From an uncultured Flavobacteriales bacterium (GTDB lineage Bacteria > Bacteroidota > Bacteroidia > Palsa-965): DNA of 64,000 bases. A program made the position numbers and the translations under genes. Shown here piece after piece: positions 7,047 to 55,716 of this stretch (the stretch's first letter is position 1; each line of letters begins with the position of its first letter). The stretch lies in NCBI GenBank assembly GCA_937974275.1, contig CALJIF010000055.1, positions 23,290-87,289 on the forward strand. The letters run 5' to 3'. The notes beneath the pieces were generated by a model. The model saw only the letters and a list, made by a program, of their open reading frames with translations, was not told where the DNA came from and did not search any database.

Positions 7047-7112
7047 CTATACGGGAGTAGGTTTTTAAGGAAAAACCGCCGAAAACTCCTATCTTTCGAC
7101 ACCAATTTCCAA

Positions 7113-10905: not shown

Positions 10906-10910
10906 TACTG

Positions 10911-11606: not shown

Positions 11607-11618
11607 GCTTCATTACAA

Positions 11619-13208: not shown

Positions 13209-13307
13209 CCGTTAAACACGTCCAAACTTTGATTTTCCCTCTCATGAGTACAAGTTTAACGTAAGTATTTAATAAGAGTATCTGGTGATACTTAATTTAT
13301 CACACAC

Positions 13308-16702: not shown

Positions 16703-18397
<1,695 letters not shown>

Positions 18398-18431: not shown

Positions 18432-18458
18432 AGGGCATGAAAAATGCCCTTTTCTTTT
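18432..18458 (+). terminator. intrinsic terminator-like hairpin overlapping the M1 peptidase start codon
   Basis: AGGGCAT-gaaaa-ATGCCCT followed by TTTCTTTT. The ATG at 18437 lies inside the 5' arm. Confidence 0.55.
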
Positions 18459-28476: not shown

Positions 28477-28494
28477 GTGGCAAAAATTAAATTC

Positions 28495-29871
28495 TTACTT
28501 CAGGTAATTCAGCCAAGGATATTTGAACTGATAATGCCTGTGATCCTCGGATATACGAATATACGTATTCGGTAATTTCTTCTTCACCCATTCATTGATG
28601 GCTTTTTCCTGCTTTGCCTGCAATGCCATATCCTGAATTAACTGGTAATCATCTTTCAAATTCGCTTTATGGGGCTCGGAACGTGATTTCAAGTATAACA
28701 CACGATAAGCTTGTTTTCCATCACGCGTAGCCATGGCATGAGGTGCAGAATAGCTTCCCGGCTTCATCTGGCTCACCAATACCGGAAACTCCGGATTCGG
28801 ATCCAAATCACCTAACATGTTTACTTCAATTTTTGTAGTGCCGGTATATGGATTGATAATCAAACCGCACGAATACTTGGAATCCGCGTCATCAGAAAAC
28901 TTCGCTGCAGCTTCACAAAAAGTCATTGAGTCAAGACGAACGAACTTCATAATTGAATCGAGTCGCACTTTGGCCAACTTTACATCTTCTGTTGTTACCG
29001 GAACTTCATATAAAATGTGTCGAATATCGACCTCTTCGCCCCTTCGTGCCAATAATTGTACAAAGTGAAAACCGTATTCCGTTTCGAAAACTTCCGATAT
29101 TTCATTTTCCTTCATGCTAAAGCATACGGCATCAAACGCCGGCACAAACGTTCCGCGACGTATGTTTTCGTATTTACCGCAATTGAACTGAGATCCGGGA
29201 TCTTTTGAATAGGTAGAAGCTGCAACACAGAAGTCTAATTTTCCGGTGACCACACGCTGACGAATACTTTCCAGTTCCATGCGCGCATATTCCTTCAATT
29301 CGGGGTTGATTGTCGGTTTAATCACAATTTGTCCAACCTCAACCTCCGCATTAATAAAAGGCAAACTATCTGCGGGAATAGAAGCGTAATATGCTTTAAT
29401 ATCAGCAGGAGTAACCGTGATATTCTGTGTAATCTGTCCTTCCATTTTTTGAATCATGATGAGTTCTTTAACACGATCATGTAATTCAAAACGGAATGCA
29501 TCGGTTGTTTTACCGTAGAACTCTTCGAACTTTTTTTGCGATCCGAATTGCATGATGAAATAACGCAAGCGACGATCAATCTCCCCGTTAATCTCTGCCT
29601 CAGACACCGTGATACTATCCTTTACAGCCTGAGCCAACATGAGTTTCTTCACCAACAGCGATTCAAGGATGACTCCGCGAAGCGAATCGTTTAACGGCAA
29701 ACCTTGTTCTTCATAATCCGCGTAAGCATTTTGAATATCAGATTCCTTAATGGTCTGATTTCCTACAACGGCAACAACACGATCCACCATTACAGGTTGA
29801 TCCTGAGCAGAAGCATCCGTGAAAGTCAACACCCACAAGGCGCTGAAGAGTAGCAATAAGTTAACCCGCAT
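28495..29871 (-). CDS. SurA-like periplasmic chaperone / PpiC-type peptidyl-prolyl isomerase
   Basis: Start set at MRVNLLLLFSALWVLTFTDASAQ (signal peptide). Has an N-terminal SurA chaperone region and PpiC-type rotamase domains (…YGFHFVQLL…). Confidence 0.75.
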   Translation of the reverse strand: MRVNLLLLFSALWVLTFTDASAQDQPVMVDRVVAVVGNQTIKESDIQNAYADYEEQGLPLNDSLRGVILESLLVKKLMLAQAVKDSITVSEAEINGEIDRRLRYFIMQFGSQKKFEEFYGKTTDAFRFELHDRVKELIMIQKMEGQITQNITVTPADIKAYYASIPADSLPFINAEVEVGQIVIKPTINPELKEYARMELESIRQRVVTGKLDFCVAASTYSKDPGSQFNCGKYENIRRGTFVPAFDAVCFSMKENEISEVFETEYGFHFVQLLARRGEEVDIRHILYEVPVTTEDVKLAKVRLDSIMKFVRLDSMTFCEAAAKFSDDADSKYSCGLIINPYTGTTKIEVNMLGDLDPNPEFPVLVSQMKPGSYSAPHAMATRDGKQAYRVLYLKSRSEPHKANLKDDYQLIQDMALQAKQEKAINEWVKKKLPNTYIRISEDHRHYQFKYPWLNYLK

Positions 29872-30745
29872 TGATCTTAATTTCTTTTTTATTAATAGCG
29901 TCATTATAAATATCATTCCGCATACGGTCGATAAGATCGCGTTTGCGTTGATTGATGATAATGCTGCGAATATTTTCCTTTTCAAATCCTATAGGACTTT
30001 TGCTGTCCCGAATCATAAAACCTCGAATATCCACGAAGTACAAATGCGTCGTATCGGAAACTTCTACATATCGGTTATTCTGCAGAAACAATTCCTTGTT
30101 ATAGGTTGGAATCGGCACTTCCTTCAACAAATCATCAAACAACAACCAGGACTGATCATCCAGAAAGTAGTTCGCTGCGAATTGCATACAATATCCTTCC
30201 AGTTCTTTTTTATCCTGAGGTTTTGTTGAACGTATCCAGTTTTTCAATTTGGCGACATTGGGTGCTTTTTTATCCACCTTAACGTATACAACCTTGATGA
30301 TGTTGTTCTTCAACGTGAAATCATCCGGATGTTCGTTGTAGTACTTCTCAATTTCAGTTTCACTCACGATGGTATCCAATTGCTGCTGCACCAGCTTCTG
30401 TTCATAGTTGTAAATGATCAGACTGTTGCGGTATTTACGTAATTGCTCCTCTACATTTTTTTCATCAGTACCCAAATTTTGTTCTGCCTGATGAACCAAC
30501 AACATTTCACGCACCCAACTGTTAATGTATGTCTGCGCAAAACGAGCGCTATCGTCTTTGGACATATCTTCAGTCATGGCCGACTTCAGATCGGATTCGT
30601 ACAGCTTGTAATTATAAACTTCCGCTAATACTTTTCCGCCCGTTTCATTTTGTTTGTTCTCTGTTCTATCGCATGAATAACACACAACTAACAGTACAGA
30701 GACGAACAAAAACAGAATACGTTGCCGCATGAGCAGAAAGTACAA
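29861..30745 (-). CDS. SurA N-terminal domain-like periplasmic protein (signal peptide)
   Basis: 294-aa ORF between two PPIase genes with a hydrophobic N-terminus (MRQRILFLFVSVLLVV). There is no rotamase motif, which suggests the chaperone domain only. Confidence 0.5.
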   Translation of the reverse strand: MYFLLMRQRILFLFVSVLLVVCYSCDRTENKQNETGGKVLAEVYNYKLYESDLKSAMTEDMSKDDSARFAQTYINSWVREMLLVHQAEQNLGTDEKNVEEQLRKYRNSLIIYNYEQKLVQQQLDTIVSETEIEKYYNEHPDDFTLKNNIIKVVYVKVDKKAPNVAKLKNWIRSTKPQDKKELEGYCMQFAANYFLDDQSWLLFDDLLKEVPIPTYNKELFLQNNRYVEVSDTTHLYFVDIRGFMIRDSKSPIGFEKENIRSIIINQRKRDLIDRMRNDIYNDAINKKEIKINAG

Positions 30746-30750
30746 GACTA

Positions 30751-32943
30751 CTATTTTACAAGCTTCAGAACATCACGATTAACTTGAACAGGATATTTCG
30801 CTTTTAACGATTCAACCCACTCACGCTCCAAACGATTTTGATAATCTGTTGTGATGACACCACGAGCTTCCTGAAGCGTTTTCGGCTTAGGCTGCTGAAC
30901 TTCGTACGTATGCACAAATGTTACTCGATTATCTTTCATTTGATCCGCTGATGTGCCTGCCTTCCAGTTGCCGTCAACAGCAGCATTTTCGCCCTTTGTC
31001 CACAACTTACGTTCAGCTTGTACATTTAACTGAGAGTCTTTATTTACCTCAGCCAAAATCTCCTTTTCAGTTTTGCCTTTGCTGATCATCTTGCGAACCA
31101 TTTTCGCAGTCTTGGCATCTTTACAAGAATACACAACAGCATCGGCACGCTCCGGCCACAAATAATTGTTCTTATTCCCTTCATAGAAAGTCCGAAGTCC
31201 TACCGTATCTTTTACTGCTTTCGACCACACACGCTGATCCATTAAGTCGAACAACAAAATTCCATCACGATATTCCTGCATCAGATATCCGAATTCTGCA
31301 TACTTCTTTTCCAATTTGCTATCCTCCAAAGTAATGCACATCTCGTTAACGTATGCCGTGTATGAATCATCCACCAGTTTCTTAAGCTCTGTTTTGGCAC
31401 GACGCACCTGCTGAGATTCCATCCACACCGCAAAGTCCATCTGCGTGTAGTTTTTACCACCCAGCGTAAACAACACTTTGTTCATTCCCTTCGCTTTTTC
31501 AGCAGCAACCCACTTGCCCATAAAAATTGTGCTGTCCACAACTTTGTACATCTCAGCTTTTACTTTAGGGTATTCTACAAAAGCATTTTCCTTTTTCACT
31601 GCTTCTATCAATGCTGTTTTGCCTTGCTGTCCGCGTTGATCACGATTACAACGTGCTTTAATATCATTCTTGGATTGTTCGAAAGTGGGCACCATTCTGC
31701 GATCCAATCGCTTCACGATGTGCCATCCCCAATCCGTTTTAACCGGCTCGGAATAATCACCGTTGTTTTGTAAACCAAAAGCTGCCTTTTCAAATGGAGC
31801 AGGCATTTTGTACAAACCAAACCATGGCATTTCACCTCCTTTTGCAGCTGATGGTTTGTCATCGGAAAACTGACGCGCCAATGTTGCGAAGTCTTCTCCT
31901 GCCTTAACCTTACCGTAAATTTCATCAATCTTATTTTTTGCATTGATGGAATCCTGAGTTGCCATTCCCATTGGAGCTTTAACCATGATGTGCGCCACCA
32001 AAACTTCTCCTTGCGCAGGACGACGATCATGTACATACACCAAGTGATATCCGTAACGCGTGCGTGCAGGACCGCCGATTTTACCGACCGGAGTATTATA
32101 GCACAACGTTTCGAACTGATACACCATAGAGAAAGCTGTAAAATATCCTAAATCACCACGATTCTGACGTGCAGACTCATCTTCAGACGCCATAAATGCC
32201 ACATCATCAAACGGCGCAGGTTTGCCACGATACTTGCGCTCCAATTGTTTCAACGGATTCACCAAATTATACACGCGCAAAGTATCAGAAGGCGAAGATT
32301 CTTTTGAGATTTTATATTTCGCCTTAAGCTTTGCTTCATAGTCGGCAATTTGCTTGGATACCGGCTTTCCTGCCAGCAAACCTTGAATGATATTGATTTT
32401 AGTGTAGGCGATATCCGTGTCTTTCGGAAGCGAATTTTCATCCAAACGAATCAGGATATGACTCGCACGAATATCTTCTTTCATACGATTGTATGCCTCG
32501 AGATATAAACTGTCATTCACCTTCTTGTCTGTCAAATATGGTTGCGCCACCTGACGGCGATAGCCAGCCAATTCATTCTTAAAAGCTGCAGAAGTATCCA
32601 TTTTCAGATCCTGAGCCTCTTTCACTTTCATCTTAAACGTCGTGAAGAGATCGAGATAGTTATTTAAAGCAGTAGTATCACCTGCCTGATCCTTGTTATT
32701 CTTTTTGTACACGTACATGAACTCACCCAAAGTAACCTTGGTGTCTCCAATAGTCATTAAGACCAAATTGGCCGTATCAACTCCGGCAACTTTAGGTTGC
32801 GGGCTTCCGGGAGCCGGCATCTGTTTCTGAGGAGCAGCCTTTTGCGAAGTAGTTTGTGTGGGTCTGGAGGTGTCTTTCTGCTGAGCAAATCCGTAAGTGC
32901 ACCCAACAGCGGCAACAACAAGAGCTAAAATCGACTTTTTCAT
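30751..32943 (-). CDS. large PpiC-type peptidyl-prolyl cis-trans isomerase (SurA/PpiD-like)
   Basis: Start at MKKSILALVVAAVGCTYGFAQQ. PpiC rotamase segments (SHILIRL…, GYHLVYVHDRR…) sit between long chaperone-like regions. Confidence 0.75.
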   Translation of the reverse strand: MKKSILALVVAAVGCTYGFAQQKDTSRPTQTTSQKAAPQKQMPAPGSPQPKVAGVDTANLVLMTIGDTKVTLGEFMYVYKKNNKDQAGDTTALNNYLDLFTTFKMKVKEAQDLKMDTSAAFKNELAGYRRQVAQPYLTDKKVNDSLYLEAYNRMKEDIRASHILIRLDENSLPKDTDIAYTKINIIQGLLAGKPVSKQIADYEAKLKAKYKISKESSPSDTLRVYNLVNPLKQLERKYRGKPAPFDDVAFMASEDESARQNRGDLGYFTAFSMVYQFETLCYNTPVGKIGGPARTRYGYHLVYVHDRRPAQGEVLVAHIMVKAPMGMATQDSINAKNKIDEIYGKVKAGEDFATLARQFSDDKPSAAKGGEMPWFGLYKMPAPFEKAAFGLQNNGDYSEPVKTDWGWHIVKRLDRRMVPTFEQSKNDIKARCNRDQRGQQGKTALIEAVKKENAFVEYPKVKAEMYKVVDSTIFMGKWVAAEKAKGMNKVLFTLGGKNYTQMDFAVWMESQQVRRAKTELKKLVDDSYTAYVNEMCITLEDSKLEKKYAEFGYLMQEYRDGILLFDLMDQRVWSKAVKDTVGLRTFYEGNKNNYLWPERADAVVYSCKDAKTAKMVRKMISKGKTEKEILAEVNKDSQLNVQAERKLWTKGENAAVDGNWKAGTSADQMKDNRVTFVHTYEVQQPKPKTLQEARGVITTDYQNRLEREWVESLKAKYPVQVNRDVLKLVK

Positions 32944-33034
32944 AAATATGTACTGAGATTTTTTGAGAAGAGCAAAAGTACTGATTATGAGAGAAACAGC
33001 CAACCATTAAAGTGGGCTAATCCAAACGAATTTA

Positions 33035-33072: not shown

Positions 33073-33933
33073 ATGAGATTTACGACATTAACCTTAGCAG
33101 CAGCTTTTGCCTTTGCGGCATGTAGTAACGACAAGCCGGAAAACAATGATACCGATACACTCAAAGGCGATTCGACCGGTGTAACCGTGGAAGTAGACAA
33201 CGAAGGAAGCAAGACCACGTTGCCATCTCCTTTGCGCGTTGCCATGATGTTTCAGCGCAGCGGACTGAAATTTATTCCGGGCATCACCTTCGGATCTGAC
33301 AAGGCGATTAACTTCTCAACGAAATTTCAGAAAGCCCGCATTATGGGTGTGTACAGTTCGGATTTAGCTTACACGGTCCTTAATAAGCAGTCGAATGAGT
33401 CGCAGAAGCTTTTGAAAACTATCCGCGAAGTTGCAGGACAAATAGATTTGGGAAAAGTATTTGACCAAACCAACTTGTATGACCGTTTCAACGCGAATTT
33501 GGACAATACCGACTCGTTGGGAGGAATTATCGGCGATATTCAATATCAAACCGATTTACAGTTGCAAGCAGGTGGGCAAACAGAGATGTATGGCATCATT
33601 TTTTCAGGAGCTTGGGTGGAAGCCATGTATATCGGAGCTCAGGTGTATAAAAAAGAAGGCAATGACAACGTGGTACTGGCATTGTTAGAGCAAATGGCGG
33701 TTCTGAAGAGCATTTTGGAAGAATTGAATTCATACAATACACAAGACGCGGATTTAAAAGCATGGATTGCTGAATTATCGGCTCTTCAAACTATAGTGGA
33801 TGCAATGCCTTCTATCAAGAAGTTGAATGAAAATCCGGATTTGGAATTTAAAGATGTGAAGCCTACTTCAGAAGAGATGGCTCCTGTGATTCAGAAAATT
33901 GAAGAATTACGAGCAGCAATTGTGAAAGGATAA
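33073..33933 (+). CDS. hypothetical lipoprotein (286 aa)
   Basis: Lipobox AFAAC|S directly after the N-terminal hydrophobic segment. A TAccTTTG element lies 31 bp upstream. Confidence 0.55.
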   Translation: MRFTTLTLAAAFAFAACSNDKPENNDTDTLKGDSTGVTVEVDNEGSKTTLPSPLRVAMMFQRSGLKFIPGITFGSDKAINFSTKFQKARIMGVYSSDLAYTVLNKQSNESQKLLKTIREVAGQIDLGKVFDQTNLYDRFNANLDNTDSLGGIIGDIQYQTDLQLQAGGQTEMYGIIFSGAWVEAMYIGAQVYKKEGNDNVVLALLEQMAVLKSILEELNSYNTQDADLKAWIAELSALQTIVDAMPSIKKLNENPDLEFKDVKPTSEEMAPVIQKIEELRAAIVKG

Positions 33934-33951
33934 TTAAAAAACTAAAGCCCT

Positions 33952-34419
33952 ATGAAAAGATTTGCATTTATCCTGATTCCATGTGCCGTTGTAGTAATGG
34001 CCTTGACTACTGCAGCCGTTCAGCAAGCTGAAATTTGCGATACCAAAGCACTTAAAGAAGCTGCAAAAAACAAACTGAGCCCTTATAACTACGATAGCGG
34101 AAAAGTAACCAAGCTGACTTACAAGAATAAGCCACAGTTAAAAGAGATTGAAGTTCCGGTCTTCATCGGAGAAAAATATCGTATGGTATTTAACATGAGT
34201 GGAATTACGCGTGGGGTTGTGGTGACTGTCTTTAACAAAGACAAGGAAGCTAAAAATCGCAAAGCGTTATGGTCATCTAAAGACGCGAAAGCTGAAGGTG
34301 GATTATACAGCTTCGAACCGGAAGGCGGCAAGTTCAAATTTTATGTGGACTACGAAATTCCGGCGGTACAAGACTCTGCTAAAGCTGAATGTGCAGTTTT
34401 CATGCTGGGATACAAGTAA
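33952..34419 (+). CDS. secreted hypothetical protein (155 aa)
   Basis: Signal peptide, followed by an intrinsic terminator. Confidence 0.5.
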   Translation: MKRFAFILIPCAVVVMALTTAAVQQAEICDTKALKEAAKNKLSPYNYDSGKVTKLTYKNKPQLKEIEVPVFIGEKYRMVFNMSGITRGVVVTVFNKDKEAKNRKALWSSKDAKAEGGLYSFEPEGGKFKFYVDYEIPAVQDSAKAECAVFMLGYK

Positions 34420-34438
34420 CCCATTTTGCGAATGTTTT

Positions 34439-34466
34439 AAAGGCTTGCTTCGGCAGGCCTTTTTTA
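34439..34466 (+). terminator. intrinsic terminator
   Basis: AAAGGCTTGC-ttcg-GCAGGCCTTT (one G-U pair) followed by TTTTTT. Confidence 0.6.
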
Positions 34467-34718
34467 TGCTCTATTGTTAATAAGTGAAGAAGCTCGTACA
34501 AGAGTCGGCTATTAACAATTTCAACTCGACATTTGCGCCACGATATTTCGCAACCATCAAGGACTGCAGCGCTAATTCGCTCCGGTTATCAACAGGCACA
34601 GAACCACTTTTCGTAACAACATTTAACAAAAGGGTGTAGATAACTACGAAACCACCTCCTGAAGTGCTGTGATGCATAAATCTATTTTTGATCGCATCAA
34701 CCTACCAACAGAAGCATT

Positions 34719-35039
34719 ATGCTATACGGAGCACTCGAAATGTCAACAGGAGTTAAGATTATCGCAGTTAATGGCGAACGTGTCATTAACGGTAATCATG
34801 GCTATCACGATGCCGAAATTGAAAAGTGGGTCCAATTTAAATTTACCGAGGTTTCCGAACCTTTGGCTCAGGTGTGGACAGGTATTCCATTCCAATTTAT
34901 TTCTCGCCTGGAAGAATTAAACGAGGGGCGTCCGGTGCGAAATTACGCGCTGAGACAACTTGCCGAAACCATTCTGGAACATAATCCGGAATTTGATCCT
35001 GCTACCGACTATCTCTACATCTGTGGAGATCCCGAATAA
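34719..35039 (+). CDS. hypothetical protein (106 aa)
   Basis: ORF ending 25 bp before a bidirectional terminator. The start is uncertain. Confidence 0.35.
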   Translation: MLYGALEMSTGVKIIAVNGERVINGNHGYHDAEIEKWVQFKFTEVSEPLAQVWTGIPFQFISRLEELNEGRPVRNYALRQLAETILEHNPEFDPATDYLYICGDPE

Positions 35040-35062: not shown

Positions 35063-35100
35063 TTTCAAAAGACCCTGACTGAACGGGGTCTTTTATTTTT
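35063..35100. terminator. bidirectional intrinsic terminator shared by convergent genes
   Basis: AAAAGACCC-tgactgaacg-GGGTCTTTT, with T-runs on both strands (…tgtttc AAAA on the left, TTTTATTTTT on the right). Confidence 0.7.
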
Positions 35101-35800
35101 GGTGCTTGGATTCACCACCCATCAATGCATACTGAATCAGGTTGGCACCCATACGTAACGCTTTCAGTCGTGCATCGGGCGAATCATTATGAACTTCAGG
35201 ACTTTCCCATCCATCGCCCAAATCACATTCGAAATCGTAAAAACAAACTAAACGTCCTTGCCACACCAGTCCAAATCCTTGAGGTGGTTTTTTGTCGTGC
35301 TCGTGTACTTTCGGTAAACCATTCGGGAAGTCGTATTTCTGGTGATATATTTTGTGTGAGAATGGCAGTTCAATAAAATCCAGCTCGGGAAATACCTTCT
35401 TCATTTGCGGACGGATAAATTTATCCATGCCGTAGTTATCACTGATGTGAAGAAATCCTCCACCAATTAAATAATTGCGCAGGTTGGTAGCTTCCTGATT
35501 ACTTAAAATAATATTACCGTGTCCGGTTAAATGAATAAACGGATAGTTAAATAATTCGCTACTGCCAACTTCGACTATAGCCTGCTCCGGATTGATTTTT
35601 GTTCCTAAATTTTCATTACAAAACTTAATCAAGTTGGGGAGTGATGTTTCGAGATTGGAATACCAGTCGCCACCACCGTTGTATTTAACCAGTCCCAGTT
35701 GACAGCTGTATGGCGGAGCAGGAGAGCGAAATCCGACCAATAGCAGTCCCACTAACAAGATGGTGATGGCATGTAGCTTATGTTTTGTTGGAATAATCAT
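35093..35800 (-). CDS. DUF4159-like secreted protein
   Basis: Signal peptide plus GGGDWY…FIHLTGHGN…GGFLHISDNYGMD. Memory-based match to DUF4159. The start abuts the stop of the upstream sensor gene. Confidence 0.5.
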   Translation of the reverse strand: MIIPTKHKLHAITILLVGLLLVGFRSPAPPYSCQLGLVKYNGGGDWYSNLETSLPNLIKFCNENLGTKINPEQAIVEVGSSELFNYPFIHLTGHGNIILSNQEATNLRNYLIGGGFLHISDNYGMDKFIRPQMKKVFPELDFIELPFSHKIYHQKYDFPNGLPKVHEHDKKPPQGFGLVWQGRLVCFYDFECDLGDGWESPEVHNDSPDARLKALRMGANLIQYALMGGESKHQK

Positions 35801-38800
35801 TTAAGAAATTTTTATACCAATTATACAAATATCGTCGGTTTGAGGTGCATTCTTTTGCCATTCACGCAATCGACGTAACAGTTCCTCTTTCTGCTCAGCC
35901 AAAGGCAAATGATGAATATCCAGCAAAATTTCCCGGAAAACACGCTGAGACATTTTTCGATCGGAATCTCCACCAAATTGATCCGCGTAACCATCGGAGA
36001 ACATATACAACACATCACCGCTCTGCAAATCACTTTCCTGATTGGTAAACGGACGGAATTTATTATCGAAATAGCTTCCGATAGAGAATCGGTTTCCTTT
36101 GGATTGTATCAGCATTCCGTCCCGAACTACGTACAACGGATTGATAGCACCCGCAAATTGAACAACGTTTGCCCCATCCTCGAAAACGCATAAGGCTACG
36201 TCCATTCCGTCGCGCAATTCACCTGCTCCTTTGTACTGATTTAACGTATGTTGAATGCCAATATTTAAATAATCCAAAATTGCCGCAGGTCGAATTAAAC
36301 CACGTTCATGAATGGCCTGATTTAATAAGTTGTGCCCCATCAAACTCAATAAAGAACCCGGCACTCCATGTCCTGTTGAATCGACAACAGCGAGATAAGT
36401 GTATTTATCACGACGTTCCACCCAGTAAAAATCACCACTCAATACATCTTTAGGTTGGTATAATACAAAGATGTCGCCAAAGCGTTCCTGAAGATATTCT
36501 TCCGGTGGTAGAATTGCATTTTGAATTCTACGTGCGTATAAAATTGAAGATTGAATATCTTCATTCTTCTGTTCAATGATGTTCAGATAGTTGATTTGCG
36601 CCACAGCAGCAGCCATTGCATCAGCTACTTCTCGAACCATATCTACCATTTCATCGGTAATTCCATTAACAATGCCGCTACCGAAATTAATCGAACCTAA
36701 CAACTTATTCTGGGAGAACAACGGCATAACCAGATATGAGTTAATACCGACTGAAATATTCTCTTCATCGGACATTGACTTAACAGCTTTACCGGTTAAA
36801 TTACCTTCAATAACGTAGTTGTTTTTTAACAAAGCGGGTAAGCTCCCAAATGCATCATACGGTACTTCATGCGTTGAACTATTGTATTGTGCATCCTTCA
36901 ATACAAATTGTATACGAATGGTTTTTGTGTTTTCATCAAGTAAAGCCAACGAAGCTCTTTTTAAATCCGGCAAACGTTGCACTAATGCCCCCAGCACATT
37001 GGTAGCAATTTCCTGAATGGTGTGCGAATGCAATAATTGTTGCTTCGCCATATTCAGGGTTTCCAATCGCACAGAATATGCGTTCAACTGCATTTGGAAT
37101 CGTTTCTTTTCCGTGGTGTCCGTAAATATTTCAATCTGTTTTAAAATACCGCCTCGCTCATCAACGATAGGTGTGTTACTTACGTCAATCCAAATTTCGT
37201 GACCGTCTTTATGATAAACTAAAAACTCTTCATGGAAACCTTCAGCACTACTCGATAAGTTACGCACCTTACGAATCGCATCTCTATCCGTGCGTTCACC
37301 TGCCATAACATCGCCGGGAAGTCGACCTTTTACTTCCTGTAATTCGAATCCGGTGATTCGCGTAAATCCTTCGTTGACCCATTCAATTAGTCCATCGGGG
37401 TCGCATATCAAAACGCCATTAATAGTTTCTGAAGCAACAAGCGATAACTTCTCTAACTCGGCTTCATAATTCTTTTTCTCGGTAATATCTCGCGCAATTG
37501 CTTGAAACCCTGAAATACCGCCGGGTTTTGAATCATCCAATAAAAGGCGCACTGTTTGTCCTATCCAAATCTTCTGCCCTTCTGCCCCAATCATGACAAA
37601 CTCCAAGTACGTATTCACCTGTTTACGTTCAAACTGCTTCTGGTAATGTCCGATTACTTCCTTCTTCCAATCGGGATGAATAATTTCAGAAAAATGTATC
37701 CCGATTAAATCCTTCATTTTGTAACCGGAAATCTTTGTTGCCACCTCATTCAAAAAAGTAAAACGTCCTTTATAATCAGTGGTATAAATGATATCAGTTG
37801 CCGCTTCAACAATGTGTTGGTAACGCGCTTCTATTTCATAACGATCCGTAACATCCTGGCCAATACCAACTTTAATACCTTCAATAATTTCTGTATCCAC
37901 CCACTGAATGTATTTTTTAGTTCCATCTCTGGCGGTAATAGTAGCGACGTAGGTTGGAGATGTTGTAGTTGTTTGTAATATTTTATCCAACATCCGCTTG
38001 TTCTCTTCATCGTCTTTAGTGCGAATTTTCCACCAACCATCTCCCAATAATTCATCTTCACGATAACCCAATATCTTTCGAAAACTGCGACTGGCAAAAA
38101 TGATCTTCCCCGCTTTGTCAGCTGCGATAATCAAACTTTGAGAATTGTTTATGGTACTGTCCGCAAAAATCAAACGGTTGAACATGTTCGATCGAGTGCT
38201 GACACTTAAAAACGCAATTACCAGATCAACTAATACCCCCAGCAACAACAAATACTTGTTATAAGCAGTATTGGATGTGGCTAATATCATGAGCGCAAAC
38301 GTCAACAACAATACAAGTGCAGAAAAAACAACTGCAGATTTATTGTTGTCCAAAATAAATCCGGCTCCGCTTAAGACAACCATCAGCGTAATCACAAATA
38401 CCGGATCAAGATTATTGATATGACATAAATAAAACGTGTGCAATACAATTGCTCCATAGCCCAAATGCGCTATGATTCGGACGATTTTATTCAACGATGA
38501 ATTTGAGTAGGACAGAACACCGATTACAATCATGACTGCTCCAATCGAAATTTGAATTGGGTGTTGATAGTCAATGTGATCAGCAAAAATGGAACAGATC
38601 AAACCTGATAGCGGATAAACAGCTCCTCCCAGCATCAGCATTACACGCCCTACAGTTCTTTGATAATTGTAATAGGTAATGTGCTCGCGGATAAAATCGG
38701 CACGCATACGCTGGTAGTAAAAGAGCAGGAATACGGATACTATTCCGACAACGACAATTACAATCAGGAAAAACCACCAAGTGGACCAGAACGGAGGCTG

Positions 38801-41017
38801 AATAGTAAAACGATACTCAATTGGATTACTGATAATTTTATGCGTATTGAGCGCCCGCACCTGCAATACATAATCTCCCGATGGCAAATTCGTTAATGCA
38901 ATGAGCGCGCTACTCCCGATGGACAGCCAATTAGTGTCGCGTCCTACTAAACGGTACTGATATTCGAGTTCAACACCTGCACCGAATTCAATACCGGTAA
39001 CTTTAAACGTAAGGTTGTTTTTATTCCAAGGTAACTTTAAGTTGAGCGGTAGTCCGGATTTGGATAGTGAATCAGCATAGTCACTCCAATTGGTCTCCGC
39101 GTTGTTTAATGTAATCGCTTTGAATTGAACGTTGGGCACAATGGCAAATCGTGCGCTTTTTGCGGGATGATAAATAATAACACCATCAGAACTTCCTATC
39201 CAAACCACGCCTTCCGTATCAATGAAAAGTGCGCCGGGTGAAAAATTTGACGTGCCAATTCCATCTTTATAATAAAAGTGACGGATGTACTGTGTATCAT
39301 TCGCAAGTGTGATTTCATCTAAGCCTAAAACAGTAAGCACATAAAAACCTTTTGCCCCATTTCTCGCAACGCCTTCTGTGTAGTTACTCCCTAATCCTTC
39401 TGATTTGTCAATCAGCTGTCCCTTATGATTGACTCTATTGTACCTCCATAAACCTCGGCTTTTTGTAGAGAAATAAATAAACTTTTCATCGCCATCTACA
39501 TCATAAATTGGCTCAAGTGGAAATCCTTTTTTGGTAATGGTATGCGGACGCACAGCGTTTCCATTCTCCATTTTGAGCAGCCCCTTGTCAGTACCAAGCC
39601 AGATCGTGCCTTCATTATCTTCATATAACGACCAAATCGGATTGCGTTGTAAAATATTTCCCGTGTTTACCTGTTCAATTTTATTGTTGTTGAATCGGAA
39701 TAAACCGTTGCTGACTGTACCTATCCATACAGATCCATCGTTGGTGTACAGCAAACTGATTATTTCACCTAATTCGGTTTCAGGTCCCGGCTGATGAACT
39801 TTTACTTTATCGTCTCGTATTTCAACAAGCGAACCATCCATGGCGCCGGCATAGATCGTGGAACCGTTCGCGCATATCGAGCTCATTCGAGGATAAGCGA
39901 TACCTTCTTTTTCACCATACACTTTTAAATCGACACCGTCATACATGACAACACCTCGTAATGTTGCCATCCAAATATTGCCGGATGCATCTTGTGTTAC
40001 GGAACGCACATCGTTACTCGGCAAACCATCCTGAACCGTAAGTTTTGTAAAAGCATCACCGTAATACATGATAAGCCCCGCATTGAAGCTTCCCATCCAG
40101 ATATCGCCTCTATTATCAGATGAAATGGTGAGAATCACATCATCAAACAATCCATTGTGTTTACCAAAATGTTTGAAGACACCATTCGTATAACTTAAAA
40201 CACCTTCACCCCATGTGCCAAACCACACAGTGCCGGACAAATCACGATGAGCACAAGTGATGTAATTTACTTTTGCATATTCCGGAAGTTGAAGTTGTGT
40301 AATCAAATTACCGTCGAAACTATAGATACCATCACCTGAAGTACCAATTAAAATTTCACCGCCGTCAAGCTCTACTAATCCCCGGATACGGGCAGCAGCA
40401 AGTTTGTCTTGTTCCGGAAATGTACGATTCGTGAACTTATTCAAAGAATAGTCTATTTGGAACAAGCCGTTGCGATCGGTTCCCAGCCATAACCTGTTTT
40501 TAGAATCGAGCAGCATAGTGCGCACTGCAAGATTGTCCGCAGGAGTACCCGTATTTACTTTAACAACGGTATTACCAACAATTTTATATAATCCATTATC
40601 GGTTGCCAGCAAGATCATCTTGGATGCTGTTGCAAACGAATACACTTTTGTAAAACGATTTGTGCCTTGTTGAATTAACGGCTTAAACACCCCTCCGGTA
40701 TACAACGCTACGCCTTTGTCCGTGGCAAAGTATAATCCTTCAGGGGCTTCTGTAATTGCTGTAACTTCATTACCGGGCAAGCCGGATGACATATCGAATA
40801 CATCAAACTCCTTTCCATCAAAACGACACAAACCACCCTCAGTGCCGATCCAAACAAATCCTGACTTATCCTGATAAATACTCAACACCTGAGAGTGCGG
40901 TAATCCGGTGCTTACGTTGTATTGAAGAAAATTATATTGCTGTGCAAAAACGGGACAGACAACACTAAGAAGTGCTATCACAACTGCATAAAGAATCGCC
41001 CGATTTCGTAATATCAT
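35801..41017 (-). CDS. multi-sensor signalling protein: periplasmic two-component-regulator propeller (Reg_prop) + Y_Y_Y domain, multi-TM block, PAS/GAF domains, C-terminal PP2C/SpoIIE serine phosphatase
   Basis: 1738 aa. Signal peptide, then repeated ~45-aa propeller blades, a Y_Y_Y segment ending at WWFFLIVIVVVGIV, 6-7 further TM helices, three PAS-like blocks, and a PP2C motif set (DFYWV…VVDSTGHGV…DD(I)C). Confidence 0.85.
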   Translation of the reverse strand: MILRNRAILYAVVIALLSVVCPVFAQQYNFLQYNVSTGLPHSQVLSIYQDKSGFVWIGTEGGLCRFDGKEFDVFDMSSGLPGNEVTAITEAPEGLYFATDKGVALYTGGVFKPLIQQGTNRFTKVYSFATASKMILLATDNGLYKIVGNTVVKVNTGTPADNLAVRTMLLDSKNRLWLGTDRNGLFQIDYSLNKFTNRTFPEQDKLAAARIRGLVELDGGEILIGTSGDGIYSFDGNLITQLQLPEYAKVNYITCAHRDLSGTVWFGTWGEGVLSYTNGVFKHFGKHNGLFDDVILTISSDNRGDIWMGSFNAGLIMYYGDAFTKLTVQDGLPSNDVRSVTQDASGNIWMATLRGVVMYDGVDLKVYGEKEGIAYPRMSSICANGSTIYAGAMDGSLVEIRDDKVKVHQPGPETELGEIISLLYTNDGSVWIGTVSNGLFRFNNNKIEQVNTGNILQRNPIWSLYEDNEGTIWLGTDKGLLKMENGNAVRPHTITKKGFPLEPIYDVDGDEKFIYFSTKSRGLWRYNRVNHKGQLIDKSEGLGSNYTEGVARNGAKGFYVLTVLGLDEITLANDTQYIRHFYYKDGIGTSNFSPGALFIDTEGVVWIGSSDGVIIYHPAKSARFAIVPNVQFKAITLNNAETNWSDYADSLSKSGLPLNLKLPWNKNNLTFKVTGIEFGAGVELEYQYRLVGRDTNWLSIGSSALIALTNLPSGDYVLQVRALNTHKIISNPIEYRFTIQPPFWSTWWFFLIVIVVVGIVSVFLLFYYQRMRADFIREHITYYNYQRTVGRVMLMLGGAVYPLSGLICSIFADHIDYQHPIQISIGAVMIVIGVLSYSNSSLNKIVRIIAHLGYGAIVLHTFYLCHINNLDPVFVITLMVVLSGAGFILDNNKSAVVFSALVLLLTFALMILATSNTAYNKYLLLLGVLVDLVIAFLSVSTRSNMFNRLIFADSTINNSQSLIIAADKAGKIIFASRSFRKILGYREDELLGDGWWKIRTKDDEENKRMLDKILQTTTTSPTYVATITARDGTKKYIQWVDTEIIEGIKVGIGQDVTDRYEIEARYQHIVEAATDIIYTTDYKGRFTFLNEVATKISGYKMKDLIGIHFSEIIHPDWKKEVIGHYQKQFERKQVNTYLEFVMIGAEGQKIWIGQTVRLLLDDSKPGGISGFQAIARDITEKKNYEAELEKLSLVASETINGVLICDPDGLIEWVNEGFTRITGFELQEVKGRLPGDVMAGERTDRDAIRKVRNLSSSAEGFHEEFLVYHKDGHEIWIDVSNTPIVDERGGILKQIEIFTDTTEKKRFQMQLNAYSVRLETLNMAKQQLLHSHTIQEIATNVLGALVQRLPDLKRASLALLDENTKTIRIQFVLKDAQYNSSTHEVPYDAFGSLPALLKNNYVIEGNLTGKAVKSMSDEENISVGINSYLVMPLFSQNKLLGSINFGSGIVNGITDEMVDMVREVADAMAAAVAQINYLNIIEQKNEDIQSSILYARRIQNAILPPEEYLQERFGDIFVLYQPKDVLSGDFYWVERRDKYTYLAVVDSTGHGVPGSLLSLMGHNLLNQAIHERGLIRPAAILDYLNIGIQHTLNQYKGAGELRDGMDVALCVFEDGANVVQFAGAINPLYVVRDGMLIQSKGNRFSIGSYFDNKFRPFTNQESDLQSGDVLYMFSDGYADQFGGDSDRKMSQRVFREILLDIHHLPLAEQKEELLRRLREWQKNAPQTDDICIIGIKIS

Positions 41018-41074
41018 GGTAACCTCTAAAGATAACTATTCCGATTTAGCTGTAACACTCGTTAAGCCGCAAGT

Positions 41075-41659
41075 TTATTTCAGCCATCGGCGGGCACCGA
41101 AATACGCCAACACCACAAATGCTAAACCCACGAGTCCGTAAATAAGAATTTGCTTCCGTTCAGGTCGTTCATTGTAATGTGTGGTGCGATCCTTAGCTTG
41201 CTCAGGAACTACTTCCAACGCAGGTAAATCATGTTGTAAATCATTCAATTGATCAGCGTACGTCATCCCGATTACTTCATTCATATGATCTACTTCACCT
41301 GCTGTAGGTTTGCGTCGGGAATGACTGCACAACTCTACCATTGGCACGCCGTATGATTCATACTTGCCGTATATAATCCACTCCTCACCATCGGCAAAAC
41401 TCATCTGGCAATCCGTTTCACAATCGGCTTTTAATGGTGTTTCGGCAAATAATTTTCCCTTATGCAAACTACGGACAACCATAGTTACTTCACTCATGCC
41501 TTTGTAACACGGGCCGACACTTTTAACGGTCCCAACGAATATCACATCATAAGTTGCGTACACTAAACTGTCCGGTTTAGAAATAGGCGGACAATTACAA
41601 GCTAAAATCTTGTCATAGGACATCACCAATAACAACAGAACAACTACAAGATGTCGCAT
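41075..41659 (-). CDS. TIMP/NTR-like domain protein with C-terminal TM anchor
   Basis: The signal peptide is followed directly by Cys-x-Cys (…KILA|CNCPPISKPDSLVYATYDVIFVGTVKSV). A later block EEWIIYGKYESYGVPMVELC resembles TIMP EYLIAGKAEGDGKMHITLC. A hydrophobic C-terminal helix is present. Confidence 0.45.
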   Translation of the reverse strand: MRHLVVVLLLLVMSYDKILACNCPPISKPDSLVYATYDVIFVGTVKSVGPCYKGMSEVTMVVRSLHKGKLFAETPLKADCETDCQMSFADGEEWIIYGKYESYGVPMVELCSHSRRKPTAGEVDHMNEVIGMTYADQLNDLQHDLPALEVVPEQAKDRTTHYNERPERKQILIYGLVGLAFVVLAYFGARRWLK

Positions 41660-41662
41660 CTT

Positions 41663-43168
41663 CTAAAAATTGTATTCGTTCAGGAAATTATCGGCAGCGG
41701 CTAAGTCAGGATACATTTCACGATCCTGCTCGTAAAAAGTTACTTTACTTCTAAAATCACGATGTACCTGCATAATGCGTTCGGAAGAATGCAATTTTTC
41801 TCGTTCTATTCGTAAATCCAAAGCCTGAGCCGCATTCAATAATTCAATTGCCAATACCTGACGAACATTATCCACAACACGCGCGCATTTTGTCGCTGCA
41901 TTTGCGCCCATACTTACATGATCTTCTTGTCCATTGGAAGACACAATAGAATCAACAGATGCCGGCGTGCACAGCTGTTTGTTTTGACTCACGATAGAAG
42001 CAGCAGTGTATTGAGGAATCATGAATCCTGAATTCAAGCCGGCTTGTTTAACCAACATGGGAGGAAGATTTCGCTTACCGGAAATAAGCAAATAGGTTCT
42101 ACGTTCCGAGATATTTGCTAACTCGGATAAAGCGATGGCCAGAAAATCTAACACCAACGCAAGCGGTTGCCCGTGAAAATTACCTCCCGATAAAATATCG
42201 CCATGATGAGGGAATACAGTTGGATTGTCGGTCACCGAATTAATTTCTGTCATAACGACGCGTTCCACATATCCGATAGCATCACGTGTTGCTCCATGCA
42301 CTTGCGGAATACAACGGAATGAATACGGATCCTGAACATCGTGTTTCATATTTGCCGGTTTTCCGGCAATTGCACTTCCGTCTAACCAGTCTAAAATATT
42401 GGAAGCAACTTCTATCTGACCGGCATGAGGACGAATGTCATGCAGTCGGGGATCGAAAGGTTCAGTTAATCCATCGAACGCGTCGAGGGACATCGCTGCT
42501 ATTCCATCTGCCGCACGAGTAAGTTGTTTGGCTCGGATCAAACAGTAAACAGACCATGCACTCATGAACTGCGTTCCGTTCAGAATGGCCAGACCTTCTT
42601 TGGCTTTCAATTTTATAGGAGTCAATCCGCACTCCTGCATTACTTCTGACGCAGGACGAATGCTGCCGTAGTAATTCACTTCTCCTTTCCCGATTAGTGG
42701 CAACGCCAGATGAGCTAACGGCGCTAAATCGCCCGAAGCACCTAACGAACCTTGCTCATACACAACAGGAAAAATGTGATTGTTGTATAAATCGACAAGC
42801 AATTGCACTGTTTCCGGTTGCACACCCGAATTGCCATGTACAAGACCCTGAAGTTTCAATAACATCATCAGTCGGACTACCTCAACAGGAACAGGTTTTC
42901 CGGTTCCACAAGCATGCGACATGATAAGATTTTCCTGCAACTGTGTTAACTCATGATCTGAAACACGTGTGTTCTTTAAATCACCAAATCCCGTATTAAC
43001 ACCGTAAATCGGACGTTCAGCAGCAGCGATAATTTCCAATAAGCGCTGATGACCAAATGCTACAGACTCCTTGGCACGATCCGATAACTGCAACTGGTGT
43101 GTATTCTGACGTAGTTGATTCAGTACATCAATCGTCACGGGTTGAGTGGGACAAATTTCGTAGATCAT
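41663..43168 (-). CDS. hutH: histidine ammonia-lyase
   Basis: Active-site MIO-forming ASG triad in [16 protein letters not shown], with full-length aromatic amino acid lyase similarity. Confidence 0.9.
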
Positions 43169-44556
43169 TTCAAGGTTTCAATTAGTTGGGAGAGATTCAG
43201 GAGTAATTGTTCGCCGGTAGATAAATTCTTAACCGCGATTACATTTTTAGCACGTTCATCCGCACCAAGCATAGCTACAAAAGGAATTGATCGTGCATCA
43301 GCATATTTAAATTGTTTTGCCATTTTCACCGGATCCGGATAAACTTCTGATGCCACGCCTGCATCCCGCAGTTGTTTTACCAAACGGACAGCATGCGCTT
43401 CATCTTCTCCGCCAAAATTTGCAATCAGAATACGTGTGCCTTCTTTTTGCATCACATCCTCCGGATAACCAACTTCATTCAACACATCAAAAATGCGATC
43501 GATACCGAATGAAATTCCCACACCCGACATTCCTTTCAATCCGAACACTCCGGTTAAATCGTCATAACGCCCGCCACCACAAATAGAACTGCTGAGTGTT
43601 CCTGCCAACGCTTTTACTTCGAAAATTGCTCCGGTATAATAATTTAATCCGCGAGCTAAAGTAATATCCAGCTCCACTTGTGCCGTTTGAAGACCTAACG
43701 AATTGACAGTATTAAAAACAAAGTTCAATTCTTCAATGCCTTTCTCTCCGATGGCATTTCCTTTCAACATATCACCAATCAAATTTAACTTCGCCTCCAT
43801 ATTGCCCGAAAAATTGAGCAACGGTTGAAGTTTTTCAACGGCAACTTCAGATACACCACGTTCACGAAGTTCTTTATTAACGCCATCAACACCAATTTTA
43901 TCGAGTTTATCAATGGCCATGGTAATTTCCATCATTCGTGAAGCTTCACCCAATACATCTGCAATCCCGGAAAGAATCTTACGGTTGTTGATTTTAATTA
44001 AAACCGGAACGCGAAAAGCATGAAAAACTTCATCGATCATTTGCACCAATTCCACTTCGTTGATCAATGAATCACTGCCAATCACATCTGCATCACATTG
44101 AAAAAACTCACGATAGCGTCCCTTCTGCGGGCGGTCAGCGCGCCAAACAGGTTGTATCTGATAACGACGAAACGGAAAAGTGATTTCACTCTGATGTTGC
44201 ACAACATAGCGTGCAAACGGAACGGTAAGATCGTAACGTAACGCACGCTCTGTTAAAATCGAGCTATTCGAGTTTTGTGCGAGTGAACGTTCGAAAGCTT
44301 CACGCATTTTTGCTTTTTTATCGTCGTTGGCTTCGTACGGACGTGAATTCAAAATCTTGAATAGCAACTGATCACCTTCTTCACCGTACTTCCCCGTTAG
44401 TGTTTCGATGTTTTCCATCGCCGGTGTTTCGATGGGCAAGAATCCGAATTTCTTGAACACCGAACGAATGGTGTCGAATATGTAATTGCGGCGCACCATT
44501 TGCTCCGGAGAAAAATCGCGTGTGCCGCTTGGTATTGAAGGTTTTTGAGATGCCAT
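43165..44556 (-). CDS. hisS: histidine--tRNA ligase
   Basis: Class II aaRS motifs, HisRS-specific regions and a C-terminal anticodon-binding domain. Its 3' end overlaps the hutH start by 4 nt. Confidence 0.9.
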
Positions 44557-47145: not shown

Positions 47146-47829
47146 TCATTTTCCGGGAAACTTCAACGGATGCTTTTCATTATACAAGCGCACATAATAA
47201 AACATCATCTCCTTGCGCTTGCGTTTTTTCAGTGCGTTAAACTCTGCTAACAAAACAGGATCTCCTTGAATTAAATACTGCACATTGTTGACATTCGCAT
47301 CATAAATCCGACCGGTTTTGGTATCCAAAAAATACTGCTGCAAAGTCTGAACGGGAGTGCCCATTGCAGGTCCGCCCATTCCTGCCGGTCCTGTAGTCAT
47401 GTAAGTTGTAACATACGCCGTAAACTGCGCGATATTTCCCATCAGCATAATTCTACTGAAATCGTTGTTACATGAAACATATACTGCGCGATTTTCGCAA
47501 AACCCCCAGGCGCGTAACGGATTCATTTCAATGACAACACTGCCCGTATCCTTGTAGCGAAGCGTTTTGGATGTCATTTGTGTTTTAATGAAATCAATAG
47601 CATTTGTATCTCCAACACCTACAATTTTGGAGCGCGGCACAGGTGTGTTGGTTCGAAATTGCTCGTAGGTTAAATAAATCCCATCCTTTAAGGGAAACGT
47701 TGATGAATAGACAATGGAATCCGTTTGTGCTTTAGCACTATCTGTAGCGAACAAAATACCCGCAGCAAACGTTAAGGAAAATACCCAATGAGCATTTAGA
47801 ATTGAATTGAATTGTTGATCTTTAAGCAT
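47146..47829 (-). CDS. secreted hypothetical protein
   Basis: ORF with a candidate signal peptide (…HWVFSLTFAAGILFATDSAKAQ). The start is uncertain because the longer ORF would overlap the divergent S8 gene. Confidence 0.4.
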   Translation of the reverse strand: MLKDQQFNSILNAHWVFSLTFAAGILFATDSAKAQTDSIVYSSTFPLKDGIYLTYEQFRTNTPVPRSKIVGVGDTNAIDFIKTQMTSKTLRYKDTGSVVIEMNPLRAWGFCENRAVYVSCNNDFSRIMLMGNIAQFTAYVTTYMTTGPAGMGGPAMGTPVQTLQQYFLDTKTGRIYDANVNNVQYLIQGDPVLLAEFNALKKRKRKEMMFYYVRLYNEKHPLKFPGK

Positions 47830-47848
47830 GGCAATAAAACGGGCTACT

Positions 47849-51197: not shown

Positions 51198-51333
51198 GGT
51201 CCCTTACTTGACCCAATGCACTTTAGTAATTCAGGTAATCATTCCCCGATTACCGGCAGTTTCGATGAGTATAACTCACATCTGGTTTTAACAGGTGCAT
51301 GGGAAGCGTATTTTCTCAAAACCCAATTTTCCC

Positions 51334-55698: not shown

Positions 55699-55716
55699 TT
55701 AAACACTCTACCGATC

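Follow-up and report, generated by a model that had tools for sequence, protein, structure and literature searches.

The locus described here lies in a stretch of 64,000 nucleotides (nt) from contig CALJIF010000055.1 of an uncultured Flavobacteriales bacterium (assembly GCA_937974275.1), referred to below as the window, and comprises a gene for a large envelope sensor that ends in a PP2C-type phosphatase domain and, directly downstream of it, a gene for a DUF4159 protein. This arrangement raises the question of what a phosphatase carried by a periplasmic sensing module would act on, and whether the DUF4159 protein is the partner of the sensor, as a preliminary description of this DNA had proposed. 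The answer that we consider probable, while keeping some reserve, is that the sensor is a SiaA-like receptor phosphatase with an input half of the hybrid two-component system (HTCS) type, controlling a SiaB/SiaC-type Ser/Thr switch whose components are encoded elsewhere, and that the DUF4159 gene is an inherited neighbour. The list of open reading frames (ORFs) and their translation confirmed the two abutting minus-strand ORFs at the coordinates given in the preliminary description, and all of the sensor domains that it had named, namely Reg_prop, Y_Y_Y, seven transmembrane (TM) segments, PAS, GAF and PP2C, were recovered by Pfam searches and hydropathy analysis (Table 1).

The argument starts from the output domain. 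Pfam assigns the C-terminal part of the sensor to SpoIIE (2.7e-20; residues 1537-1737, profile positions 2-191 of 192; 73.6 bits against a gathering cut-off of 25), and the NCBIfam model of SiaA (NF038263) matches it with a much higher score than this generic family, 178.6 versus 73.6 bits (2e-52), over positions 381-657, that is, over the PP2C part only. The score misses the cut-off of 700 bits set for SiaA equivalogs, and the sensor is therefore no SiaA ortholog, though its domain is SiaA-like. In the PDB, an alignment covering the entire domain was obtained with the crystal construct of the Pseudomonas aeruginosa SiaA PP2C domain (6k4e, 1.5e-34); no other PDB sequence was matched even at E<=10, and no RsbU, SpoIIE, RsbP or RssB structure was retrieved. 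The active-site residues reported for SiaA are D457, D474, G477, D534, D600, G601, D604 and D653 (PMC7647112). Their equivalents in the sensor, in the same order, are D1529, D1546, G1549, D1606, D1675, G1676, D1679 and D1728; all eight are present and invariant in 17 orthologs, among them the metal-binding aspartates on which the preliminary description had staked its PP2C assignment. Judged from its sequence, the domain is SiaA-like rather than RsbU/SpoIIE-like and is predicted to be catalytically competent, so that the sensor would be an active phosphatase. The resemblance to SiaA of the P. aeruginosa SiaABCD system (6K4E) thus covers the full-length PP2C domain with every active-site residue, and both proteins are membrane-anchored sensor phosphatases; in addition, paralogs of the window protein adjoin SiaB and SiaC genes. 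The propellers, Y_Y_Y region, seven TM segments, three PAS domains and GAF domain of the window protein, in contrast, do not align to the SiaA model, and its gene lacks adjacent siaB, siaC and siaD genes, with no diguanylate cyclase seen nearby.

In Pseudomonas, SiaA dephosphorylates SiaC, SiaB phosphorylates SiaC, and unphosphorylated SiaC binds its target (PMC7647112; PMC8457831). Genes of the same two families recur beside paralogs of the window sensor. A search of GTDB genomes by full-length alignment, in which one of the two patterns was a PP2C motif, returned mostly paralogs and, as orthologs, loci L001-L003 only; a search of metagenomes with an ortholog-specific alignment of the linker between PAS2 and PAS3 added six orthologs (L084-L089), and its other matches were used in the SiaB/SiaC counts. 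Clustering of the ORFs around the PP2C gene, carried out for 77 genome loci of paralogs, gave two recurrent families, which were verified as SiaC (PF09345, 1.8e-35) and a SiaB-family kinase (NF038262, 1.6e-76; Pfam DUF6272). Local hidden Markov models (HMMs) built from the verified genes placed SiaB and/or SiaC near the PP2C gene in 9 of these 77 loci and in 10 of 27 metagenome loci that carry a PP2C gene (19/104 in total), often at a distance of just 4-70 nt. An unbiased Pfam scan of 84 small ORFs flanking paralogous sensors gave SiaC (7) and DUF6272/SiaB (4) as the commonest families, and neither STAS nor HATPase_c_2 was matched by two or more of these ORFs. The most compact arrangement is that of locus L015, where a verified Reg_prop-Y_Y_Y-SpoIIE sensor is followed by a gene for a 258-aa (amino acid) protein, siaB and siaC; the order is the same in L057.

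Several features of these paralogous loci deserve mention in their own right. The gene lying between the propeller-PP2C sensor and siaB-siaC in L015 (13201-13977) and in the unrelated locus L057 (13496-14326) encodes a protein of 258-276 aa with no Pfam match and occupies the slot in which the output protein would be expected, which in Pseudomonas is SiaD; L034 has a Usp-domain gene there instead. SiaB-family kinases of ~380 aa, each encoded next to siaC, occur in L048 (17811-18959), L144 (10387-11547), L146 (4101-5366) and L163 (11772-12920). The first of these has two DUF6272/SiaB matches, and the other three score alike (394-409 bits). One long ORF of L103 (15713-18949), with siaC on both sides, has both a match to the SiaB HMM and a tblastn match to PP2C (17594-18352) and may encode a fused phosphatase-kinase protein.

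The preliminary description had favoured partner switching over His-Asp signalling and had pointed out that no STAS antagonist or anti-sigma factor is encoded nearby. The latter observation holds, none of the 42 window ORFs scanned out of 46 matching STAS, RsbW-type HATPase_c_2, SiaB or SiaC. The former idea is reasonable as far as partner switching is concerned; what has to be replaced are the partners, which are expected to be SiaB and SiaC and not a STAS protein with its anti-sigma factor. Since SiaB/SiaC genes, and not STAS/RsbW genes, recur beside the paralogs, the lack of a nearby STAS gene says little. A classical RsbU/SpoIIE-type switch, in which the PP2C domain would dephosphorylate a STAS antagonist encoded elsewhere and a sigma factor would be freed from an RsbW-type kinase, appears unlikely to us. 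It has in its favour the Pfam SpoIIE assignment, the 'RsbU' in the names that the Joint Genome Institute (JGI) gives to relatives, and the finding that SiaC is itself structurally STAS-like (PMC8457831), so that the two mechanisms are closely related. What turns the balance is the match of the domain to SiaA, with none to RsbU, SpoIIE, RsbP or RssB structures even at E<=10, the recurrence of SiaC and SiaB, and not of STAS or HATPase_c_2, among the flanking ORFs, and the absence of STAS and RsbW-type proteins from the window ORFs scanned.

The cytoplasmic half of the sensor agrees with the claim of the preliminary description that a PP2C output stands where a kinase, receiver or AraC module would be expected, SpoIIE being present and Pfam detecting no HisKA, HATPase_c, Response_reg or AraC domain at E<=0.01. 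The PP2C domain is preceded by a GAF domain and by three PAS stretches (Pfam PAS_9, 5.7e-34). Among 15 orthologs with 44-55% overall identity, conservation is highest in PAS3 (71%) and PP2C (67%) and lowest in the 7-TM block (36%) and the GAF domain (41%). PAS3 gives a weak match to models of the light-oxygen-voltage (LOV) type (YtvA_fam, 62.5 bits against a cut-off of 250). It was rejected as a LOV domain on account of this score and of the stretch found at the position of the flavin-binding cysteine, LPGDVMAG, which has no cysteine; in LOV domains the flavin-adduct cysteine lies in the motif NCRFLQ.

The input half, by comparison, is of the HTCS type. Behind an N-terminus that resembles a signal peptide and is probably cleaved, Pfam identifies Reg_prop repeats (1.6e-33) and a Y_Y_Y domain (3.6e-09, residues 683-732), and the periplasmic module is homologous by sequence to solved periplasmic domains of Bacteroides HTCS proteins (3v9f, 3.7e-43; 4a2l/4a2m, from BT4663, 5.6e-34; 3ott/3va6, 7e-26). 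A scissor-like mechanism of transmembrane signalling has been reported for BT4663 (PMC8534201). The window sensor shares with the Bacteroides HTCS proteins (BT4663; 4A2L/4A2M, 3V9F, 3OTT) the signal peptide, the periplasmic Reg_prop and Y_Y_Y domains (E ~7e-26 to 3.7e-43) and a membrane-spanning region after Y_Y_Y. It differs from them in its Ser/Thr phosphatase output, in its location outside a polysaccharide utilisation locus and in the lack of HisKA, HATPase_c, receiver and AraC domains, and for this last reason it is not itself an HTCS. HTCS proteins generally have one TM helix after Y_Y_Y, against seven predicted in the window sensor.

Hydropathy analysis places seven hydrophobic segments between residues 741 and 943, six of them strong and one weaker (residues ~846-866), and the charges of the loops obey the positive-inside rule. 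On these grounds the protein is predicted to cross the membrane seven times with its N-terminus outside and its C-terminus inside, which would put the propellers in the periplasm and the PAS-GAF-PP2C half in the cytoplasm. The block matched no Pfam family even at E<=10, 7TMR-DISM_7TM included, and was accordingly rejected as a member of the 7TMR-DISM family. Receptors of that family combine an extracytoplasmic sensor domain, seven TM helices and a variable cytoplasmic output, a logic that the window sensor shares, but in the latter the 7-TM block has no 7TMR-DISM_7TM match and the domain outside is a propeller/Y_Y_Y module, not 7TMR-DISMED. Searched exhaustively with phmmer, 1.84 billion representatives yielded 56 relatives of the block at E<=1e-3, most of them proteins of 1300-2170 aa with the block at residues ~700-965. 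Seven were sampled for domain content. P0242 carries Reg_prop, Y_Y_Y, the 7-TM block, PAS domains, HisKA and HATPase_c, and SpoIIE outputs are found in P0249, P0254 and P0250; P0266 (SpoIIE output) and P0268 (kinase output) have the block at their N-terminus with no propeller, and P0246 (1326 aa) has Reg_prop, Y_Y_Y and PAS domains with no output domain detected at the threshold used. The unnamed 7-TM/PAS chassis is therefore found joined to either histidine-kinase or PP2C outputs.

The union of propeller and phosphatase is not unusual in sequence databases. A search with the whole protein retrieved 5231 proteins at E<=1e-20. About 48 of them are full-length orthologs of ~1740 aa, 43-97% identical and with the same list of domains; the exact sensor protein of the window is already in public collections. 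Below the orthologs, scores fall sharply to shorter proteins of 1035-1350 aa, and Reg_prop, Y_Y_Y and SpoIIE are present in all ~70 shorter matches among the top 120 listed. Many of the shorter matches are named 'ligand-binding sensor domain-containing protein/serine phosphatase RsbU' by the JGI and several 'SpoIIE family protein phosphatase' by NCBI. The propeller-to-PP2C fusion is thus an established database architecture, abundant in Bacteroidota, of which the variant with 7-TM, PAS and GAF modules is a small distinct clade of ~48 sequences. The short Reg_prop-Y_Y_Y-SpoIIE sensors (1035-1260 aa) have the same input and output families as the window protein, with a PP2C identity of 37-48%, and in some loci (L015, L057) the sensor gene lies shortly before siaB/siaC and is transcribed in the same direction. 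They differ in lacking the three PAS domains and the GAF domain and, judging by their length, probably the 7-TM block, and their overall identity to the window protein is 25-30%.

Taken together, the modules suggest how the protein may work. As a receptor phosphatase of the inner membrane, it would detect an extracytoplasmic ligand, by analogy probably an oligosaccharide, with its periplasmic double-propeller/Y_Y_Y module. The signal would pass through the seven-helix membrane module, be integrated by the three PAS domains and the GAF domain, and control in this way the SiaA-like PP2C domain. The latter would most likely remove a Ser/Thr phosphate from a small switch protein of the SiaC type (STAS-like), to be re-phosphorylated by a kinase of the SiaB type. 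Signalling would then follow a SiaABC-style partner switch and not His-Asp phosphotransfer, and the genes for the kinase, for the switch protein and for the final output would all lie elsewhere in the genome.

We turn now to the second gene. The TAA stop codon of the sensor gene is followed directly by the ATG of the DUF4159 gene (TAA|ATG, gap of 0 nt), and the one terminator-like hairpin found, with a stem of 11 pairs of which 5 are GC, sits behind DUF4159, between this gene and the convergent orf106; its role as a terminator is suggested by its sequence. A scan for sigma-70-type promoters, which does not model Bacteroidota promoters, found no match on the minus strand near the junction. With no spacer between the genes and a terminator-like hairpin only after the second, sensor and DUF4159 are probably co-transcribed in this lineage; co-transcription, even if plausible, is no evidence by itself of a shared function.

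Seventeen orthologous sensor loci, the window counted, were compared (L082/L085 and L083/L088 are near-duplicates, so that not all are independent). DUF4159 lies directly downstream of the sensor on the same strand in 10 of the 17, is adjacent but convergent in three, and is absent within 10 kb in the remaining four, where a pseudouridine synthase gene takes its place. The expectation that DUF4159 would be kept beside orthologous sensors is therefore borne out by 13 of the 17 loci as far as adjacency goes, but three of these have the genes convergent and four lack DUF4159. In a neighbour-joining tree of the sensors the loci without DUF4159 group together in a single clade, and so do, in a second clade, the loci with a convergent DUF4159; each of these two arrangements is therefore a single event, and same-strand adjacency looks ancestral. 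The abutment of 0 nt is limited to the sub-clade of the window itself, the gaps elsewhere measuring 13-337 nt. In the convergent locus L166, DUF4159 ends a string of TPR/PD40/OmpA genes, 8 nt after the previous one.

The surroundings of the pair are preserved as well as the pair. The upstream block (ABC-F, DUF3108, HisRS, HutH, orf194) and the downstream block (orf106, orf155, orf286, PPIase, orf294, SurA-like, MoxR) are kept even in L002, whose sensor is 45% identical, and the flanking housekeeping genes (HisRS/HutH/PPIase) are conserved as well as the sensor-DUF4159 adjacency. In GCA_016194975.1, sensor and DUF4159 are found on one contig at a distance of ~60 kb, and it is DUF4159 that keeps the downstream block. 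Across the 17 loci we found no conserved sensor-DUF4159 operon beyond this background synteny. DUF4159 is moreover far more widespread and more conserved than the sensor, with at least 8000 candidate homologs, all of the listed top 120 being at least 70% identical. Elsewhere in Bacteroidota its neighbours are folP and a DUF5686 gene, or a Peptidase_M23 gene; no sensor gene lies within 8 kb of it there, and DUF4159 was present in none of the 77 paralogous sensor loci.

These distributions bear on the proposal that sensor and DUF4159 form a functional pair, for example with DUF4159 as a periplasmic co-sensor or ligand-processing accessory kept at a fixed ratio to the sensor by translational coupling. 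Consistent with such a pairing are the abutting stop and start codons with no terminator between them and a terminator-like hairpin after the second gene, the adjacency in 13 of 17 loci in an apparently ancestral same-strand order, the persistence of this adjacency in L165 despite the loss of the upstream block, and the N-terminal hydrophobic segment of DUF4159, which could bring the protein to the compartment of the propellers. We nevertheless judge the pairing quite unlikely. It has to contend with an abutment confined to one sub-clade, a clade with a convergent DUF4159 at the end of a TPR/PD40/OmpA string, another with a pseudouridine synthase instead, a separation of ~60 kb in GCA_016194975.1 where DUF4159 has its own downstream block, equally conserved housekeeping genes on either side, and a complete absence from the paralogous loci. 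Homologs of DUF4159 at 70% identity or more also far outnumber orthologs of the sensor and have folP/DUF5686 or Peptidase_M23 genes as neighbours. The suggestion in the preliminary description that the abutment means joint function derived from adjacency alone, and this adjacency is better seen as synteny inherited within a small clade, with one inversion and one break. Most likely, the DUF4159 protein acts in the envelope independently of the sensor and is no dedicated partner of it, and its gene is a syntenic neighbour that may be co-transcribed with the sensor gene.

The properties of the DUF4159 protein itself are in keeping with this. It matches the Pfam family over its full length (PF13709, 5.9e-70, profile positions 2-202 of 202) and begins with a hydrophobic helix (residues ~5-27) that may be either a cleaved signal or a membrane anchor. 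Its AlphaFold2 (AF2) model has a predicted local distance difference test (pLDDT) score of 83.7; the best Foldseek match, and the only strong one, is to 4i66 (Hoch_4089, uncharacterised; E 5e-12, TM-score 0.69/0.80), with ThuA-like and class-I glutamine-amidotransferase (GATase-like) folds matching weakly. Across loci whose sensors are 45-73% identical, DUF4159 is 77-97% identical, a conservation that fits a strongly constrained function of its own. An alignment of the short Bacteroidota subfamily to which it belongs shows as invariant H90, H94, H149, H153, H166-E167-H168, C192-D193, D196, H204 and D206. Family and predicted fold are the same as those of Hoch_4089 (4I66), but at least H90 and H94 of the short Bacteroidota subfamily are not shared with it. 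The invariant His, Asp, Cys and Glu residues hint at a metal-binding or catalytic site. A literature search on 'DUF4159' returned only the Pfam database paper in the library searched.

Some observations on the neighbours of the pair may be added. Three small ORFs of 286, 155 and 106 aa (33073-35039, plus strand) have no family match, and the N-terminus of the 286-aa protein is lipoprotein-like (weak NCBIfam matches). Their order and orientation beside DUF4159 are kept in distant relatives (49-75% identity), and they stay with DUF4159 where it is split from the sensor. Beyond them, PPIase/SurA-like genes of 750, 294 and 496 aa followed by a lone MoxR-type AAA_3 ATPase gene (27514-33003, minus strand) form a block kept across the clade. 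The MoxR ATPase (27514-28476) was considered as a link to DUF4159 and rejected, being simply the outermost gene of the conserved PPIase block and having no Bat/vWA genes as neighbours. In L167, a SprB/CHU_C gene followed by PorP/SprF is found upstream of DUF4159. On the other side of the sensor, orf194 encodes a protein with no Pfam or NCBIfam family match. Most orthologous loci have it ahead of the sensor, with 33-42% identity, and L171/L172 contain it without the sensor. Its size (194 aa) would fit SiaB; this assignment was rejected in view of the missing family match, the absence of a match to the SiaB HMM and its occurrence without the sensor. The overlap between HisRS and HutH measures 4 nt, and 3 nt separate HutH from orf194 (41075-44556, minus strand), and in relatives an inorganic pyrophosphatase gene is often found beside orf194.

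Returning to the SiaA-like receptor phosphatase, several points count against our interpretation. At E<=1, the local HMMs matched no SiaB or SiaC in the window, nor in L001-L003 and L081-L089 among the ortholog loci, and a recount within 10 kb on either side of the orthologs that took in L164-L166 gave 0/15 at E<1e-10. With neither gene beside the window sensor or its 15 orthologs, the substrate is therefore assigned by analogy with the paralogs, which share 37-47% PP2C identity with the window protein and among whose loci SiaB/SiaC linkage is seen in just 18%. The negative result for STAS and RsbW genes covers 42 of the 46 window ORFs and the small ORFs flanking paralogous sensors, which leaves room for such a pair elsewhere in the genome. 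The same-strand adjacency of sensor and DUF4159, apparently ancestral and kept down to 44-54% sensor identity, leaves some room for a functional link. Lastly, the library searched yielded no paper naming Y_Y_Y together with SpoIIE and no experimental study of a protein with this architecture.

The 0/15 orthologous loci with linked partner genes, together with the 82% of paralogous loci that likewise have no linked SiaB/SiaC, would also suit a PP2C domain that acts on other substrates (targets of Hanks-type kinases, or the cytoplasmic domains of the sensor itself) or serves mainly as a scaffold, with no partner switch involved. We regard this as improbable: the invariant catalytic residues and the rank of PP2C as one of the best-conserved modules argue against a pseudo-enzyme, and SiaB and SiaC are the sole recurrent signalling neighbours of this PP2C subfamily. 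Equally hard to credit is the idea that in this clade DUF4159 is exported and, as a metal-dependent enzyme or binding protein, makes or presents the ligand of the propellers, the two proteins forming an envelope sensor that feeds a SiaB/SiaC-type switch with an output other than a diguanylate cyclase, which if true would provide a first function for DUF4159 and an HTCS-type chassis rewired from His-Asp to Ser/Thr signalling.

Table 1. Features of the sensor-DUF4159 locus, in window coordinates
Feature	Position	Strand	Basis
Terminator-like symmetric G+C-rich hairpin with A-/T-run flanks	35067..35094	not assigned	terminator scan
DUF4159 gene, 235 aa, ATG start, N-terminal hydrophobic helix	35093..35800	-	Pfam DUF4159 5.9e-70
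Sensor phosphatase gene, 1738 aa, ATG start	35801..41017 (including stop codon)	-	ORF list, translation, Pfam, NCBIfam
Predicted linker helices and SiaA-like PP2C (SpoIIE-family) domain, aa ~1476-1738	35804..36592	-	Pfam, NCBIfam, PDB homology
GAF domain, aa ~1325-1475	36593..37045	-	Pfam GAF_2 4.4e-07 (aa 1332-1472), GAF 7.6e-05
Three PAS domains, predicted cytoplasmic, aa ~946-1310	37088..38182	-	Pfam PAS_9/PAS/PAS_4; TIGR00229 5.3e-53
Predicted 7-TM block, unnamed membrane module, aa ~739-945	38183..38803	-	hydropathy and positive-inside rule
Predicted periplasmic module: Reg_prop beta-propeller repeats, aa ~26-640, and Y_Y_Y region, aa ~641-738	38804..40942	-	Pfam, PDB homology
Signal peptide-like N-terminus, aa 1-25 (...CPVFAQQ)	40943..41017	-	hydropathy peak 2.64 over aa 1-31
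Intergenic region upstream of sensor start, 57 nt	41018..41074	-	sequence
orf194, upstream neighbour, last gene of the ABC-F/DUF3108/HisRS/HutH block; context, not a component	41075..41659	-	

Further genes were noted in the remainder of the window. At 51295-56757 (plus strand), the gene for a SprB-repeat protein of 1467 aa, which carries a CHU_C signal for type IX secretion, directly precedes PorP/SprF in a cassette of the gliding-adhesin type. Predicted type IX secretion cargo with a Por_Secre_tail domain is encoded at 57-2288, 18437-20866 and 47828-49966, including one M1 peptidase and one S8 subtilase. A bacterial alpha-2-macroglobulin-like protein of 1862 aa (20998-26586, plus strand) has bMG3, MG2, bMG5 and bMG6 domains, a bait region, TED and bMG10. 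A glycosyltransferase/methyltransferase cluster (5157-14906, plus strand) has glycosyltransferases of family GT2 at 7113-7841 and 10174-10905 and a methyltransferase at 10911-11606; interspersed among its genes are four large ORFs (529-779 aa) without a Pfam match.

For this locus the gain is mostly negative, in that the abutment of DUF4159 should not be taken to mean that the two genes form a functional pair. For the family it goes further. The SiaA-like PP2C domain, the SiaB/SiaC genes beside some paralogs and a chassis that is found with either output point to a Ser/Thr partner-switch route that would run from envelope sensors in parallel to His-Asp signalling. HTCS-type propeller sensor phosphatases are numerous in Bacteroidota, and the present analysis makes the class testable, the compact clusters of L015 and L057 being concrete candidates.

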